Numbered from the stretch's first letter, positions 41,992-47,606 are shown. The stretch is DNA of 64,000 bases from an uncultured virus (IMG/VR IMGVR_UViG_3300042445_003239) (IMGVR_UViG_3300042445_003239); one strand, 5' to 3'. Notes: a model not told the origin generated them from the sequence alone. Made by a program: numbers and translations.

Positions 41992-43062
41992 ATGTCAAAT
42001 ATACTAGAGAAACTAAAAAAGAATTGCCGCATTAAAGAAGCGGATGTCCTATCAGATAGTGAATTTTATGCTGAGAAAGATATTACTACAACAAGCGTAC
42101 CAATGATTAATGTTGCACTTGGAGGTAGCATTGATGCTGGATTAACAAGTGGACTAACAGTACTTGCAGGTCCAAGTAAACACTTTAAGACCAGCTTTGC
42201 ACTACTTATGGCAAGTGCATATCTTAAGAAACATAGCGATGCATGTCTTATGTTTTATGATAGTGAATTTGGCAGTCCTCAGAGTTACTTTGAGAGCTTT
42301 GGTATTGACACAAAGCGTGTCTTGCATATTCCTATTAAAAACATTGAAGAACTTAAGTTTGATATTGTGAATCAGCTTGAGCAGATGGAGCGCAAAGATA
42401 AGGTAATTATTGTTATTGATAGTGTTGGTAACCTTGCAAGTAAGAAAGAACTTGAAGATGCAATGAATGAAAAGAGCGTGGCCGATATGACACGTGCTAA
42501 AGCGCTTAAAGGATTGTTCCGTATGGTTACGCCATACCTTACAATGAAAAACATTTGCTTGCTTGCAATCAACCATACCTATCAAGAAATTGGCTTGTTC
42601 CCAAAAGCTATTGTTAGCGGTGGAACTGGCATCATGTATAGTGCGGACAATGTTTGGATTATTGGTCGCCAACAAGATAAAGATGGTACCGAAATTCAAG
42701 GCTATCACTTTGTAATCAATGTAGAGAAGAGCCGCTTTGTTAAAGAAAAGAGCAAGATTCCAATTAGTGTAAGTTGGAAAGGCGGTATTGAAAAATGGAG
42801 TGGATTACTTGCTGTTGCGGTTGATGCTGGATATGTAGTGAAGCCAAAGAACGGATGGTATGTTGCGCATAACCCTGCAACCAAAACCGATCTTAGCGGT
42901 TCATTGCGTGAAGCTGCAACCATGACCAAAGAGTTCTGGGAAAACGTATTTAAGAATACTGATTTTGCAGATTACATTAAGAACAAGTATACCATTGGCT
43001 TACGCGACATGATTACGGATAGCGAAGACGCGATGGTTGACTTACACGAAGACGAAGCATAA
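41992..43062 (+). CDS. uvsX: RecA-like recombinase UvsX
   Basis: AGPSKHFKT, FYDSEFG, IDSVGNLASKKE, DMTRAK, VSGGTG. Confidence 0.95.
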   Translation: MSNILEKLKKNCRIKEADVLSDSEFYAEKDITTTSVPMINVALGGSIDAGLTSGLTVLAGPSKHFKTSFALLMASAYLKKHSDACLMFYDSEFGSPQSYFESFGIDTKRVLHIPIKNIEELKFDIVNQLEQMERKDKVIIVIDSVGNLASKKELEDAMNEKSVADMTRAKALKGLFRMVTPYLTMKNICLLAINHTYQEIGLFPKAIVSGGTGIMYSADNVWIIGRQQDKDGTEIQGYHFVINVEKSRFVKEKSKIPISVSWKGGIEKWSGLLAVAVDAGYVVKPKNGWYVAHNPATKTDLSGSLREAATMTKEFWENVFKNTDFADYIKNKYTIGLRDMITDSEDAMVDLHEDEA

Positions 43063-43067
43063 AGGAT

Positions 43068-43376
43068 ATGCCCAGTGAAATAAGCGACTATATTTTCATT
43101 GACGATCCCGCAAACCAAAATGTTTGTGGGATCCAATGCACAAACGCAAAGTACTATGGAATACGATATAAGTATGGTACCATAAGCGTAGATGAAGATG
43201 TGAAACATGATAAGTGTCAATTAAATTTTGACTATAAAATTATTTACAAACCAGCGTGTTTTGATATAATTGACTTAAACGCAGACACCGACTTTAAAAA
43301 CTTTGCTGGTGATGTCTTGTGCGATATCTTAACAAATCAGGAATACAAAATTGGAAAACATGGAGACAAATCTTGA
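43068..43376 (+). CDS. hypothetical protein (gp40-like position)
   Basis: Between uvsX and gp41 as in T4-like gene order. Confidence 0.55.
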   Translation: MPSEISDYIFIDDPANQNVCGIQCTNAKYYGIRYKYGTISVDEDVKHDKCQLNFDYKIIYKPACFDIIDLNADTDFKNFAGDVLCDILTNQEYKIGKHGDKS

Positions 43377-44001
43377 AACAACAATCATTAACAATCTTAT
43401 ACACAATGAAGTATTTTGTCGCAAAGCGCTGCCACACATAAAGCCTGAATATTTTGATGGTATTCATCGCACTATATATGAGGCTATCTTAAAGTTTATT
43501 ACCAAGTATAATAAGCTGCCAAACAGTACAGCATTAAGTATTGAATATAAGGCGTCTGACGCTAGTCGTAATGCCAATGCAGCCGAGGTTAACTATTACA
43601 TCAATGCATTATCAGAACACCTAACGGTTGACGAGCAATGGATTATTGATAGTACCGAAAAATGGTGTAAGGACCGTGCAGTATATCTTGCCATCATGGA
43701 GTCAATCTCTATCATTGATGGTAAAGATCTTGAAAAGAGTGAAGGCTCAATTCCTACTATATTAAGTAAAGCATTAAGCGTCACTTTTGATACAAATGTA
43801 GGACACGATTACCTTGAGAATGCTGAAAGCCGTTATGAATTTTATCATAAGACCGAAGATAAGATACCATTTGATCTTGATATGTTTAATGTTATTACAG
43901 GCGGAGGTATACCACGCAAGACGCTTAATATTATTCTTGCCGGCTGTGTTCACCCTGAGACTCCAATTCGAGTAAGGATTCATAAGAAAATTCTTTCTTA
44001 G
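43360..44001 (+). CDS. gp41 replicative helicase fragment 1 (N-extein, 195 aa) + 18-aa split-intein N fragment
   Basis: TEKWCKDRA, GHDY, TGGG..KTLNIILAG then CVHPET (intein block A) at 43945. Confidence 0.9.
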   Translation: METNLETTIINNLIHNEVFCRKALPHIKPEYFDGIHRTIYEAILKFITKYNKLPNSTALSIEYKASDASRNANAAEVNYYINALSEHLTVDEQWIIDSTEKWCKDRAVYLAIMESISIIDGKDLEKSEGSIPTILSKALSVTFDTNVGHDYLENAESRYEFYHKTEDKIPFDLDMFNVITGGGIPRKTLNIILAGCVHPETPIRVRIHKKILS

Positions 44002-44746
44002 ACCGCTTGCGATCTGGTTGGTAATTGCGTGCTTTTCCTAATTGCCAACCACGCAAAAGCAATTCAAATATCTTATTGGTTTCAATACGAAATGTTTTTT
44101 CTCCGTTATTCACATATTCTTTTCCACCATCTTTCATACCGTATTGCCATCCTTCATCAATTTTTTGTTGAATTTCATTATAAAGACATCGTGTTATAAC
44201 ATCGTTTTTATGAATCCATAATTTACCAATATGTGATTTTCCTCCCATATGTCCACGCTTCGAGCGGCCTTCCTTTGAGGCCCAATACGCCCATGGGTTA
44301 TTGGGCGAAATTATTGAAGCTTTTCCACCAAGTGATGCAAATTTTGAAAAGTTTTCTGGATTGTGAATGCCTAATTTATTTTTAATTTGTGTCTTAATTC
44401 CTTTACGTGAAATTTCAGCTCGATCTTCCTTACCAATTGAAAACATTCCTATCTTATTCTCATAACACCATTTGCCAACAATACGTCTTTGTTCATATGT
44501 TAAATTTGCTCCTAGCATATGCATTGATCGTAGGTCATTAACCATACCATGAATTTTCCACAATAAGAAATGTGCTGCTATATGCTGTCTAATACTAAGG
44601 TAAGTAAAATTACTTTCATCTTCTCCGCCGCCCGCATGTCGTGGAATGATATGATGTTTATGTATGTTTGATCCTTTACAATAATGAATTTTGTTATTTA
44701 CATTTTCATTACATATGTTATAATAGATTCGAGCGTAAAATTTCAT
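43931..44746 (-). CDS. free-standing HNH homing endonuclease
   Basis: HKHHIIPRHAGG.....N...L..RQH..AH.LL; C-terminal repeats W..G; only confidently called minus-strand gene; probable start ATG 44746. Confidence 0.85.
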   Translation of the reverse strand: MKFYARIYYNICNENVNNKIHYCKGSNIHKHHIIPRHAGGGEDESNFTYLSIRQHIAAHFLLWKIHGMVNDLRSMHMLGANLTYEQRRIVGKWCYENKIGMFSIGKEDRAEISRKGIKTQIKNKLGIHNPENFSKFASLGGKASIISPNNPWAYWASKEGRSKRGHMGGKSHIGKLWIHKNDVITRCLYNEIQQKIDEGWQYGMKDGGKEYVNNGEKTFRIETNKIFELLLRGWQLGKARNYQPDRKRSKKEFSYESLLELESQGEHSRQE

Positions 44747-44755
44747 AAGATTGAT

Positions 44756-44783
44756 TCCTGTTCCAGCTAACATTATATTTATA
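44756..44783 (-). promoter_or_regulatory. late promoter TATAAATA (44783-44776) overlapping a homing-site-like sequence
   Basis: Minus strand AAT ATA ATG TTA GCT GGA ACA GGA = NIMLAGTG. Confidence 0.6.
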
Positions 44784-44799
44784 CAAATCACACCTTTAT

Positions 44800-45978
44800 A
44801 TGACCGAAAAAATTATTAAAATTAAAGAAATTGAAGAGCTCCTGAATGCAGGATACACAATAGAAGTAGATTCACCCGATGGTTTTGTTCCCGTATCAGC
44901 ATTTGTTGATAAAGGAATGTGGGAAGAATACGTTTTATTGCTTAATAGCGGAAAAGTTATTCGAGTCAATGAAAATCACTTGTTTGAAACTATTGATGGT
45001 TGGCAATATGCAAAAGATCTAGTTCTTAAAAAACAGCAATATCTGACTGAAGACGGATACCAAATTGGTATTGTTACAAAAACAGGAAAGCAAATTCCAA
45101 TCGTTGATATTCAAGTTGAGCATGAAAATCACCGATACTATACTGATGGTGTTTCTTCACATAATACGGGTTGCGGAAAGAGCTTAGGTATGTGTCACAT
45201 GGCAAGCGCTGCATTGGCACAAGGTCGTAATGTACTATACATTACAATGGAAATGGCTGAAGAAAAGATTGCAGAACGTATTGATGCCAATCTTTTTGAT
45301 GTTCGTATTGACCAATTAAAAGACTTGACTAAAGCATCATTCAACACAAAGGTTAAAGGTATTAGCGATAAAACCAAAGGTAAACTTGTTGTCAAAGAAT
45401 ATCCAACCGCGAGCGCACACGTTGGTCACTTTCGCGCATTGTTACTTGAACTCAAATTGAAAAAGAAGTTTGAGCCAGACATCATTTATATTGATTATCT
45501 AAACATTTGCGCGAGTAGTCGCATGAAAGGATTGAGCGGTAGTGTCAATACTTATAGTCTTATCAAAAGTATTGCTGAAGAAATTCGTGGATTGGCTGTT
45601 GAATTTAATGTTCCTATCTGGAGCGCAACTCAAGTTACAAGAGCGGGATATTCCAGCAGTGATATCGAAATTACGGATACAAGTGAATGTATTGCTATTA
45701 CTGAATCCGTTACTATGCGTGATGGACAAGTTAAAACACTCGATGAAGTTAAACTAGGTGACCAAATTACTGCAAATGATGAATATAAAACAGTAATGTT
45801 TAAGCATCATAATAAGATGAAAGATTGTGTAAAGATTACAACCGAAAGCGGTAAATCAATAATTGTTTCGAAGGATCATGTATTTCCATGTAAAAACAAT
45901 GGGAATGTTAAACGTATTAGTGTTAATACCGGATTAAATGTTTCAGACATTCTATCTGTTGTACTCGGCAAAATGTAA
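44800..45978 (+). CDS. gp41 helicase fragment 2: intein-1 C fragment (122 aa) + middle extein (174 aa) + intein-2 N fragment (96 aa)
   Basis: ENHLF, VDIQV, SSHN|TGCGKS at 45165/66; YITMEM, IDYLNI, SATQVTR; DTSE|CIA at 45688; SKDHVF. Confidence 0.92.
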   Translation: MTEKIIKIKEIEELLNAGYTIEVDSPDGFVPVSAFVDKGMWEEYVLLLNSGKVIRVNENHLFETIDGWQYAKDLVLKKQQYLTEDGYQIGIVTKTGKQIPIVDIQVEHENHRYYTDGVSSHNTGCGKSLGMCHMASAALAQGRNVLYITMEMAEEKIAERIDANLFDVRIDQLKDLTKASFNTKVKGISDKTKGKLVVKEYPTASAHVGHFRALLLELKLKKKFEPDIIYIDYLNICASSRMKGLSGSVNTYSLIKSIAEEIRGLAVEFNVPIWSATQVTRAGYSSSDIEITDTSECIAITESVTMRDGQVKTLDEVKLGDQITANDEYKTVMFKHHNKMKDCVKITTESGKSIIVSKDHVFPCKNNGNVKRISVNTGLNVSDILSVVLGKM

Positions 45979-46009
45979 TTATTATAAATAATATCATACT
46001 ACAGATTTT

Positions 46010-47071
46010 ATGATAGCTATTACTGATCCATTAGAGAGAAAACCCATACGTGACATAATTAATAAATTGCCTGATGATAAAAAACAATATTTTATTCAAT
46101 TTATAGCTGAATATATTGGTCATAAAAAACTATCATCGTCCCTTAAGCGCAAATATGAATTGTTTAAAGACATACTTATGAATAATGAAAATTCATATAT
46201 TTCATTATTCACAGAATACAATTCATCTAATAATCAATATCGTAAAGCGGATATTAGACATGGCTTAGGCTCAGGTAAAAAGTTAAAAACCACATACGCG
46301 GCGCGGCCCAAAGCGGTAAATATTAATTCATGCTTTACGATTACTTATTGGATTGCTAAAGGCTTATCTGCCGAAGAAGCCAAAAAGCAGGTTTCTGAAT
46401 TGCAAAGTAAAAACTCAAAGAAGAAGCATCATAAATTTAAATTGAACAGCTTAAGTTATAAAGAATATTTACCCAATTGTATTGAATATTGGATTGCTAG
46501 AGGCTATGATTTAAACGAGTCGGAAATTCTCAGAAAACAAATTTCTATAAAATCTGAGTTATCATATGCAAATTATATTGAAAAATATGGGTTTGATATA
46601 GGTACGACTAAATTAAAAGCACAGCACGAAAAACGAAAGGCTACATTGATTGAACGGTTTGGCACAACTGCAGTGAATGGCAAATGCTCAAAGGAATCAC
46701 TTAAATTTTTCATCCCGCTTTATAAAAGTATTAGAAAACTAGGTGTTAATAAAAATGATATCTTTTGGGGCATTCGCGGAAGTAAAGAATTTGCGCATCA
46801 TTATAATGGCATGAACTTCTTTTATGATTTTACGATTCAATCATTAAAAATAACAATTGAATATAATGGTGCATTTTGGCACGCGCGTCCTGAAACTGAG
46901 TGGAAAGGCTTTGGATCTAAAGAAGAAAACCTTGCTTATAACCATATTAAAGAAAATACTATTAAACAGTACGGCCATGATTTATACATTGTATGGTCGG
47001 ACGAAGATCTTGAATTAAAAAGAAATACTATAACACAAAATATTAAAGAAAAATACTATGCAACCGCTTGA
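46010..47071 (+). CDS. free-standing endonuclease, Vsr/DUF559-like PD-(D/E)xK C-terminal domain
   Basis: FFYDF.....ITIEYNGAFWH, IVW; two YWIA(K/R)G repeats; TATAAATA at 45983-90. Confidence 0.8.
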   Translation: MIAITDPLERKPIRDIINKLPDDKKQYFIQFIAEYIGHKKLSSSLKRKYELFKDILMNNENSYISLFTEYNSSNNQYRKADIRHGLGSGKKLKTTYAARPKAVNINSCFTITYWIAKGLSAEEAKKQVSELQSKNSKKKHHKFKLNSLSYKEYLPNCIEYWIARGYDLNESEILRKQISIKSELSYANYIEKYGFDIGTTKLKAQHEKRKATLIERFGTTAVNGKCSKESLKFFIPLYKSIRKLGVNKNDIFWGIRGSKEFAHHYNGMNFFYDFTIQSLKITIEYNGAFWHARPETEWKGFGSKEENLAYNHIKENTIKQYGHDLYIVWSDEDLELKRNTITQNIKEKYYATA

Positions 47072-47606
47072 AGAATATTGTCTAATTAAAGCAAATGAGC
47101 TTATCACAAAGGGTATGGTGTCCGAACATACCGATGTTTTTGAATTAACTGATATGTTAATTGCGCTTGAAACTGAAAAAATTGATAAGAATACAAAAAG
47201 TGATCTTAACCTAAATTATAATGATCCTATTGTTTCTATTGAGGATGTTGGTGAGGTTGAAACTACAGACATTTCAACCTCAGGCGATAACCTATTTTAC
47301 TGCAACGGCATTTTAACAAAAAACAGTTTTGGACTACCTGCAACAGCCGATTTGATGCTTGCATTTATTCGCACCGAACAACTTGACAAGATGAATCAAA
47401 TTATGGTTAAGCAACTTAAGAATCGGTACAATGATCCAACAACCAACAAGCGATTTACTATTGGAATTGATTTACCAAAGATGAGACTGTATGATATTAG
47501 TGATCCTATGGCAAACATCTCAACAGAGCCTGATAACACGCCTGTGGCCAATACGCCGTTTAGTTCTGGACGAAAGTCTCGTGCAGTGAGTGGCTTAAAT
47601 GTGTAA
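47058..47606 (+). CDS. gp41 helicase fragment 3: intein-2 C fragment (89 aa) + C-extein (93 aa)
   Basis: IVSIEDVG...TDIST...LFYCNGILTKN|SFGLPATADLM; KQLKNRY, F.IGID..KMRLYD. Confidence 0.92.
   Translation: MQPLEEYCLIKANELITKGMVSEHTDVFELTDMLIALETEKIDKNTKSDLNLNYNDPIVSIEDVGEVETTDISTSGDNLFYCNGILTKNSFGLPATADLMLAFIRTEQLDKMNQIMVKQLKNRYNDPTTNKRFTIGIDLPKMRLYDISDPMANISTEPDNTPVANTPFSSGRKSRAVSGLNV

Follow-up and report, generated by a model that had tools for sequence, protein, structure and literature searches.

The locus described here raises the question of why the leader of an HNH homing-endonuclease gene, lodged inside a split intein of the gp41 helicase gene, should resemble the uninterrupted gp41 sequence at the site that the intein occupies. 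By the window we mean the whole stretch of DNA that was analysed, 64,000 nucleotides from an uncultured virus (IMGVR_UViG_3300042445_003239). Its source is a T4-like virus record from lake-water metagenomes. The nearest named relatives are cyanophages, which match about 100 nt of gp41 only, and a megablast search against a phage collection returned only 6 records, each with 2% query cover. The features needed for the argument are the following.

41992-43062: UvsX-like gene, upstream of gp41.
43351-44001, plus strand: gp41 piece 1, consisting of the N-extein, 18 intein residues and a stop.
43351-43944, plus strand: gp41 N-extein, with the C-terminal end ...KTLNIILAG.
43945-44001, plus strand: IntN fragment of 18 residues (CVHPETPIRVRIHKKILS) plus stop, with a contiguous homologue in locus L080.
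43931-44746, minus strand: free-standing HNH homing-endonuclease gene of 271 aa, with its ATG at 44746 and its stop at 43931-43933.
44697-44724, plus strand: sigma-70-like promoter candidate, TTTACA-16-TATAAT (11/12), antisense in HNH codons 8-17.
44756-44779, minus strand: look-alike of the intein-less gp41 Walker A site and proposed HNH operator, first in rank by weight matrix and kept in relatives.
44783-44776, minus strand: TATAAATA, T4-type late-promoter motif for the HNH gene, by motif match.
44800-45978, plus strand: gp41 piece 2, with 122 intein residues and then TGCGKS.
44800-45165, plus strand: IntC fragment of 122 residues, ending ...VSSHN.
45166-45687, plus strand: gp41 middle extein, from TGCGKS (Walker A) to ...DTSE (DnaB_C, E 3.5e-13).

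The gp41 helicase is split over three coding pieces. At the first junction, AAT ATT ATT CTT GCC GGC (43927-43944) is followed by TGT, the codon of the intein Cys1, and on the C-extein side ...CAT AAT is followed by ACG GGT at 45166-45171. The two sides, NIILAG|CVHP...stop and M...VSSHN|TGCGKS, are complementary halves with one insertion point, as in a fractured gene, and between the intein halves there is an endonuclease gene with its own regulatory signals. This HNH gene is inverted relative to gp41 and sits between pieces 1 and 2. Its 3' end and that of gp41 piece 1 overlap convergently by 71 nt (43931-44001), a stretch that comprises the last extein codons and IntN. Piece 2 is broken by a second split intein at DTSE|C (45688), with an ORF (46010-47071) between the halves of that intein and the last gp41 extein starting at 47325. 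The second inserted ORF matches phrog_559 'HNH endonuclease' (E 4e-5) and has TATAAATA upstream at 45983; its start, MIAIT(D), repeats the start of the second intein, CIAIT(E), with 11 of 12 nt identical over IAIT. Upstream of this ORF no look-alike of the DTSE|SFGL junction was found, the top matrix matches being the resident half-site and unrelated places.

The assignment of the HNH gene rests on several searches. The Pfam HNH match (E 0.0058) is under the curated cut-off, the match to phrog_655 'homing endonuclease' has an E value of 9e-16, and the tblastn matches are annotated phage homing endonucleases, those of T4 among them. Residues H29, H31, H32, N46, H55 and H59, which are invariant or nearly so in 39 relatives, correspond to the HNH catalytic motif. 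The AF2 model has a pLDDT of 80, and its tail (residues 238-271) is below 50. The best Foldseek matches to the model are HNH domains of about 60 residues (E 0.35, probability 0.96); VIA-align gave Z 4.5 or less, so that these fold searches are without a clear match, and a PDB sequence search with the HNH profile returned nothing under E 0.2. A second HNH relative is encoded in the same virus record outside the window (G000:C1:32767-33000, L017), with 40% identity over residues 4-87.

On the minus strand, 44779-44756 reads AAT ATA ATG TTA GCT GGA ACA GGA, which translates as NIMLAGTG; this look-alike lies 9 nt upstream of the HNH ATG. The first-pass annotation had reported this sequence with its position and translation and had reconstructed the extein junction, all of which proved correct on recheck. 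It had also given an identity of 16/24 to that junction, with 7 of the 8 mismatches at third codon positions. The counts stand (the mismatches are at codon positions 3,3,1,3,3,3,3,3), but an identity of 16/24 is no evidence of anything beyond chance: at least 16/24 is reached at 8 of about 128,000 window positions, the N-extein itself being one of them, and we therefore rejected the raw identity as an argument.

Comparison at the level of codons and of the gp41 family is more telling. Besides the N-extein, the look-alike is the only six-frame 8-mer in the window with at least 6 of the 8 residues of NIILAGTG, and it has 7. A weight matrix of 24 nt was made from 30 distinct intein-less gp41 alleles, all on other contigs, and in a scan of 127,954 window positions the look-alike ranked first with 17.0 bits, followed by the resident N-extein half-site (16.5) and a next position at 12.3. 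A 45-nt matrix fails to pick it out; the likeness ends after eight codons, of which the N-extein side contributes six and the C-extein side two, and the flanking target codons are unmatched. The look-alike shares 20/24 with the best of the 30 collected alleles and 18/24 (hand count) with the intein-less allele on a contig of run X19, and across lineages only 14-17/24 are shared with the junction of the own genome, which indicates that the look-alike follows the family consensus and not the resident copy. The likeness is far beyond chance, and it is the codon pattern and the conservation that carry the case, not the figure of 16/24.

As regards conservation, a first HNH protein search of viral contigs gave 15 loci. 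The look-alike is present at the same place upstream of the HNH gene in 14 of them, namely all those 79-100% identical, and the fractured arrangement is the same in all 14; L015, with 57% identity, is without it. It is present also in the L040-L045 group and in a metagenome locus with 72% identity (L181). When seven haplotypes were aligned, the stretch from TATAAATA through base 2 of codon 7 was invariant except at four places of the look-alike: position 9 (G/T/A, giving ATG, ATT or ATA), position 10 (T/C, TTA or CTA, with Leu kept), position 15 (T/C/A, GCT, GCC or GCA) and position 21 (A/G/C, ACA, ACG or ACC). The last codon varies among GGA, AGA, GTA and AGT, and is changed in L101 (AGA) and L105 (GTA). 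Outside the promoter motif, 13 of 20 look-alike positions are invariant, against 6 of 25 in both flanks (Fisher p 0.0076; 7 haplotypes). Within positions 9-21, three of the four variable sites are third positions, and with so few sites (hypergeometric about 0.12) the close clade alone cannot prove a wobble-restricted pattern.

More distant HNH genes were collected by a profile search (80 loci) and one metagenome scan (9 loci). The leader set holds one locus per distinct leader, that is, 44 loci and the window. Dropped for identical leaders were L098-L100, L102, L104, L106-L110, L113-L118, L125, L128, L135, L141, L142, L146, L154, L156, L158, L161-L163, L165, L167, L168, L178-L180 and L183; L149 was dropped for missing upstream DNA, and L169-L177 as weak partial matches. 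Among 49 loci scanned, 40 have an N-extein/IntN or IntC/Walker A signature, always on the strand opposite to the HNH gene. In the HNH protein tree (quick search, midpoint root) the genes with a look-alike fall in two separated groups, of which one is the large clade of the window and the other consists of L130/L152/L159, with L132 nearby; the tree requires 4-5 changes between leader types.

We call a leader short (type A) if the distance from the promoter motif to the ATG is below 55 nt. There are 18 such leaders. The 17 that are long enough for scoring reach a best matrix score of 9.76 on average when read in the sense direction and of -21.5 when read antisense; shuffled leaders (n=1000) gave a mean of -21.6, a standard deviation of 1.5 and a maximum of -15.9. 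The mean is 6.17 if the clade of the window is taken as one row, and since the loci in these statistics are related to one another, their independence is overstated. The 26 long (type B) leaders, of 60-100 nt, have a mean of -12.4 against -15.3 (sd 1.05) for shuffles, and are without a look-alike.

Strong independent look-alikes occur in four of the loci:

L129: AAC GTT ATA TTG GCA GGG ACC GGT (NVILAGTG).
L137: ...GCC GGT ACA GGG.
L159: ...GCC GGC ACT GGC.
L130: AAC ATC GTA ATG GCA AGA ACT CGC.

With 23.8 bits, that of L129 ranks highest among the 9,522 positions of the locus; it begins 6 nt after the promoter. Weak or degenerate look-alikes occur in L122, L127, L152, L182, L166 and L132, and L126, with a leader of 5 nt, has none. 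In L122, L127 and L152 the 3' part, ACAGGAG, is Shine-Dalgarno-like and the 5' part overlaps the AT-rich promoter, so that these three, doubling as other signals, add little. Across lineages the Ala-Gly-Thr-Gly part follows GCN GGN ACN GGN, and in the last three codons all four third bases are seen. Measured from where the promoter motif ends, the look-alike starts at -6 to +13 nt, and between its own end and the ATG there are 2 to 33 nt; the distance is thus tied to the promoter and not to the ATG, which fits a transcriptional operator and not a ribosome-binding element. In the L105 group a stretch coding for DIIIAGTV (L105:870-893, minus strand) scores 18.7 with the intein-less matrix; it is separated from the downstream HNH gene by about 1.6 kb and probably belongs to another gene.

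The first-pass annotation had named conservation upstream of homologous HNH genes as a check, with absence from close homologues as the sign of a chance match. Every close homologue keeps the look-alike between diverged flanks, and distant HNH lineages have versions of their own, the opposite of that outcome. The look-alike is a real, selected feature.

The 26 type B genes occupy the same gp41 site and have a structured leader instead of a look-alike, which means that an operator is dispensable for the HNH family. Directly after TATAAATA these leaders have a conserved two-hairpin element, as judged from 24 of the 26 that were folded (L138:2432-2503, L134:2432-2503, L151:161-233 and 21 more), in which the unpaired TC(G/A)CG, CTCTA and CAGC are invariant and 13 of 17 predicted pairs show compensatory changes. 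An Rfam search of three type B loci returned nothing relevant. Judged by these patterns, the element may serve this endonuclease family as another means of control, acting at the RNA level. A supposed degenerate look-alike in L015/L121 (GCGGAACGG) was rejected, as it is part of the structured type B leader. In the leader of the window no RNA hairpin was found (MFE -2 kcal/mol, z +1.72), and it folds worse than shuffles.

What the look-alike resembles can be seen in relatives. Locus L080 has a contiguous intein at the same site with no inserted gene (junction NIILAG|CVHPDTKIVVRITSLAVEKEIKIG...SSHN|TGVGKS); L080:2495-4264 is a contiguous mini-intein at the Walker A site, with the HNH gene absent. 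Six more contigs (L079, L081, L082, L084, L086, L087) share the IntN start of L080. In the window the first intein has an atypical split, its N fragment being no longer than 18 residues, and about 13 of these align to the contiguous homologue; from the mini-intein of L080 it follows that the HNH cassette broke such a mini-intein at a point some 13 residues in. IntN and IntC together account for the contiguous L080 intein without the look-alike. The top matrix matches in L080 and L084 include no target-like site at the HNH insertion point in the contiguous intein, and on this ground we rejected an invasion by way of an ectopic target-like site there.

A search with the N-extein gave 80 loci, which by hand count comprise 51 with an uninterrupted junction (LAGTG, LAGTA or MSGTG), 28 with an intein (7 with the L080-type IntN start) and 1 cut off at the contig end. 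As in collaborative homing, element-less gp41 alleles exist in relatives and the resident site is interrupted. One contig in the public run X19 carries such an allele, joining window position 43935 to 45166 by nine other letters (TTGGCAGGA); on its two sides, 49 + 135 nt are identical to the window. Its junction reads TTG GCA GGA ACG GGT, and the difference from the resident allele is confined to the three codons ahead of the junction, which are TTG GCA GGA there and CTT GCC GGC in the window. X19 is filed as a metatranscriptome, and the contig alone cannot prove RNA. The three-codon difference could be a co-conversion tract of homing. The locus shows the three allelic states that would be expected if a homing cycle were under way, namely intein-less, with a contiguous intein, and with a split intein plus HNH gene. 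From these alleles and the look-alike, the uninterrupted gp41 Walker A codons are a plausible homing target.

The surroundings of the look-alike contain promoter-like sequences on both strands. The window has 12 copies of TATAAATA, where 5.67 would be expected, and 11 of them are on the plus strand; on the minus strand it is found once, ahead of the HNH gene, which is on that strand too. Four plus-strand copies were checked (45983, 47610, 47624, 49662), and each lies just upstream of a plus-strand ORF; TATAAATA also precedes the HNH gene in relatives. By analogy with T4, TATAAATA would act as a late promoter. The T4 late-promoter motif is placed at about -13 to -6, and on that placement the look-alike would span roughly -9 to +15 of the predicted late promoter. 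The overlap of the look-alike with the predicted promoter of the HNH gene, 4 nt, is what an operator of the known type would have.

On the plus strand, the sigma-70-like candidate at 44697-44724 points across the look-alike to the IntC/helicase piece. In 26 of 45 loci this place holds a match of 10/12 or better, against 1/45 on the sense strand and 0/45 deeper in the HNH gene, and synonymous recoding yields 15.6 +/- 2.3 of 44; in L119 the match is a perfect TTGACA-17-TATAAT. From its sequence and position, the inverted HNH cassette may supply a promoter for the downstream half of the broken gp41. Contigs from public RNA runs lie on the gp41 pieces only and leave the HNH gene and its leader uncovered, and so they say nothing on transcription there. 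The X8 joint 43724/45229 was disregarded, its short side being 29 letters.

We regard it as probable that the look-alike is an autoregulatory operator of the I-TevI type, bound by the HNH protein, and that it points to the Walker A codons as the homing site. The comparison of the two assumes that the homing site is the intein insertion site. On this reading, the HNH protein would recognise the look-alike because it resembles the proposed homing site, N-I-I-L-A-G-T-G. Newly made HNH protein would bind it late in infection and block the late promoter, thereby shutting down its own gene. The bound look-alike would be poorly cut, and we propose that this is because only eight codons are copied, with no flanking target sequence. 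The real site in intein-less relatives would be cut by the same enzyme, and repair would copy in the entire cassette, that is, the split intein (IntN and IntC) with the HNH gene. The intein would then restore helicase function and at the same time disrupt, and so protect, the resident site, which amounts to collaborative homing. The freedom of third positions would be that of an enzyme adapted to a coding target that drifts synonymously. The operator reading already put forward in the first-pass annotation gains from the conservation and the codon pattern, and the binding and repression by the HNH protein, the weak cleavage and the identity of the homing site are what we infer. It is possible, though unlikely, that the look-alike is in addition a two-way switch in the 53-bp divergent region, lying both over the HNH late promoter and in the path of the antisense early-type promoter, through which the HNH protein would shut its own gene and the downstream helicase half. 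If so, the dose of the selfish element would be tied to the rebuilding of the host helicase, and the type A DNA operator and the type B two-hairpin RNA leader would be interchangeable cassettes that were swapped at least four times.

Other explanations should be weighed against the self-repression operator. The HNH protein might bind the look-alike in a main role other than self-repression, which we consider unlikely. As a roadblock, the protein bound late in infection would stop transcription of the IntC/helicase piece from the antisense promoter, and the look-alike does lie between that promoter, with its conservation in 26/45 loci against 1/45 and 0/45 in controls, and the IntC start at 44800; as a decoy the look-alike would titrate the HNH protein, and as a nicking site it would stimulate recombination. 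The comparative results in favour of binding suit all three equally. However, the position of the look-alike is tied to the HNH late promoter, as self-repression predicts, and cutting or nicking the own phage genome would be costly. The look-alike might also be a neutral relic, gp41 target DNA captured by illegitimate repair as the HNH cassette moved and then inherited; it is at the edge of the inserted cassette, and target-site relics beside invading endonuclease genes have been proposed for introns. This is quite improbable, because the look-alike is kept where both flanks have diverged, remains present in HNH lineages that share about 40-50% identity with the HNH of the window and in two clades far apart, and is a complete, uninterrupted site in inverted orientation and not a half-site, and because the contiguous intein has no target-like site at the insertion point. 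The captured target copy that the first-pass annotation had allowed as an option loses ground accordingly, the look-alike being kept across HNH proteins about 40% identical and not coming from the intein coding sequence.

Constraints of the leader itself offer a further explanation, a coincidence produced by an AT-rich late promoter next to a purine-rich ribosome-binding region, or by a plus-strand promoter. Indeed, AATATAAT lies next to TATAAATA or overlaps it, ACAGGA(G) resembles a Shine-Dalgarno sequence and is found in type B leaders too, and a plus-strand TTGATT-17-TATATT takes the look-alike as its spacer. Yet we find this very improbable: the look-alikes of L129, L137, L159 and L130 lie 7-33 nt from the ATG and end in GGGACCGGT, GGTACAGGG, GGCACTGGC or AGAACTCGC, which are not Shine-Dalgarno-like, L105 is without any such sequence, and composition-matched shuffles never come near the observed scores. 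The plus-strand promoter candidate was rejected, as its -35 is not conserved (CTATAT in L105) whereas its 'spacer' is. A ribosome-binding region would explain the look-alike only partly: ACAGGA(G) may act as one in some lineages, but the look-alikes of L129, L137, L159 and L130 lie far from the ATG or are poor in purines. Finally, translation might account for the look-alike, which would then encode additional N-terminal residues of the HNH protein, with GTG 44791 or ATG 44774 as the start, or belong to a small upstream ORF, and would be kept for its protein sequence. The HNH reading frame of the window stays open upstream across the look-alike as far as GTG 44791, and the variation is mostly synonymous, but in the L105/L111 group a stop codon lies a short way upstream and none of ATG, GTG and TTG occurs ahead of the HNH ATG, and the ATG inside the look-alike is ATT or ATA in other haplotypes. 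Moreover, the distance from the look-alike to the ATG is not a multiple of three in 6 of 10 lineages, the clade of the window being counted as one (2, 4, 7, 8, 10 and 26 nt). We give translation hardly any credence.

The self-repression reading has several implications. For an uncharacterised HNH endonuclease family it predicts, from sequence, that the target is formed by the uninterrupted Walker A codons of gp41, and the variation of the look-alike would be a natural read-out of the positions that the HNH protein may tolerate. It would also extend self-limitation in the style of I-TevI from intron-encoded enzymes to a free-standing enzyme that broke an intein. Split inteins with a short N fragment are valued for protein semisynthesis. 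The first gp41 intein, with its N fragment of 18 residues and its predicted splicing, is a possible tool of this kind.

We propose, by analogy, that the look-alike is a further homing-endonuclease operator, of a class already known, in a setting that is new. The literature search, mostly of journals outside subscription, gave no operator or homing-site look-alike for an intein-associated or fractured-gene endonuclease. The best-described member of the class is the operator of I-TevI, encoded in the td intron of T4, which shares 15/20 nt with the homing site and overlaps a late promoter (Edgell et al. 2004, as summarised in PMC2988022). According to the same summary, I-TevI binds this operator and the homing site with equal tightness, cleavage of the operator is about 100-fold lower, and expression is reduced by it (PMC2988022). 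As far as that summary goes, the arrangement is alike, with resemblance to the homing site over a T4-type late promoter just upstream of the endonuclease ORF, and the likeness there (15/20 nt) can be set beside that found here, which is 16/24 for the resident junction and 18-20/24 for intein-less alleles. Binding, repression and poor cleavage are reported there for I-TevI, whereas here they are proposed from sequence. I-TevI is a GIY-YIG enzyme in a group I intron, and ours is an inverted free-standing HNH gene inside a split intein; unlike the operator of I-TevI, the look-alike imitates a coding junction that, in this genome, comes about only through protein splicing. I-TevIII belongs to the HNH family. 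In the case of I-TevII and I-TevIII, putative operators that resemble the homing sites and lie over middle or late promoters have been proposed from sequence (PMC2988022). Both enzymes are intron-encoded, and the relevant part of that source describes their operators without comparative conservation, whereas here conservation extends across relatives.

The locus can also be compared with fractured genes, in which split inteins have an intervening free-standing endonuclease gene, gp41 being one of the cases (Dassa et al. 2009, PMC2677866). As in the genes described there, an essential gene is broken, an endonuclease lies between the halves and TATAAATA precedes the endonuclease. The endonucleases treated in the corresponding part of that paper are GIY-YIG and Vsr-like, with none HNH, whereas here the enzyme is HNH and inverted; the cyanophage-like gp41 break described there is at 356 of P-SSM2 gp41, and here it is at the Walker A site. 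For the leaders, the passages concerned report RNA hairpins and leave a homing-site look-alike unmentioned (PMC2677866). Relative to the fractured genes in that account, the split here, with an IntN of 18 residues, is atypical. Short N fragments are described for other atypically split inteins, with 16 aa in VidaL, 15 aa in PolB16 and 25 aa in AceL TerL (PMC13014065), and the IntN found here is like those listed there in being very short. With respect to collaborative homing, the closest parallel is F-CphI beside the psbA intron of cyanophage S-PM2 (PMC6083498). As outlined there, a free-standing endonuclease with specificity for the element-less allele is combined with a splicing element that interrupts and thereby protects the resident gene, which is also the arrangement here, with the specificity of the HNH protein being that predicted above. 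The partner of F-CphI in that account is a group I intron and the endonuclease lies beside the gene, whereas the partner here is an intein and the endonuclease lies inside the very intein that it splits.
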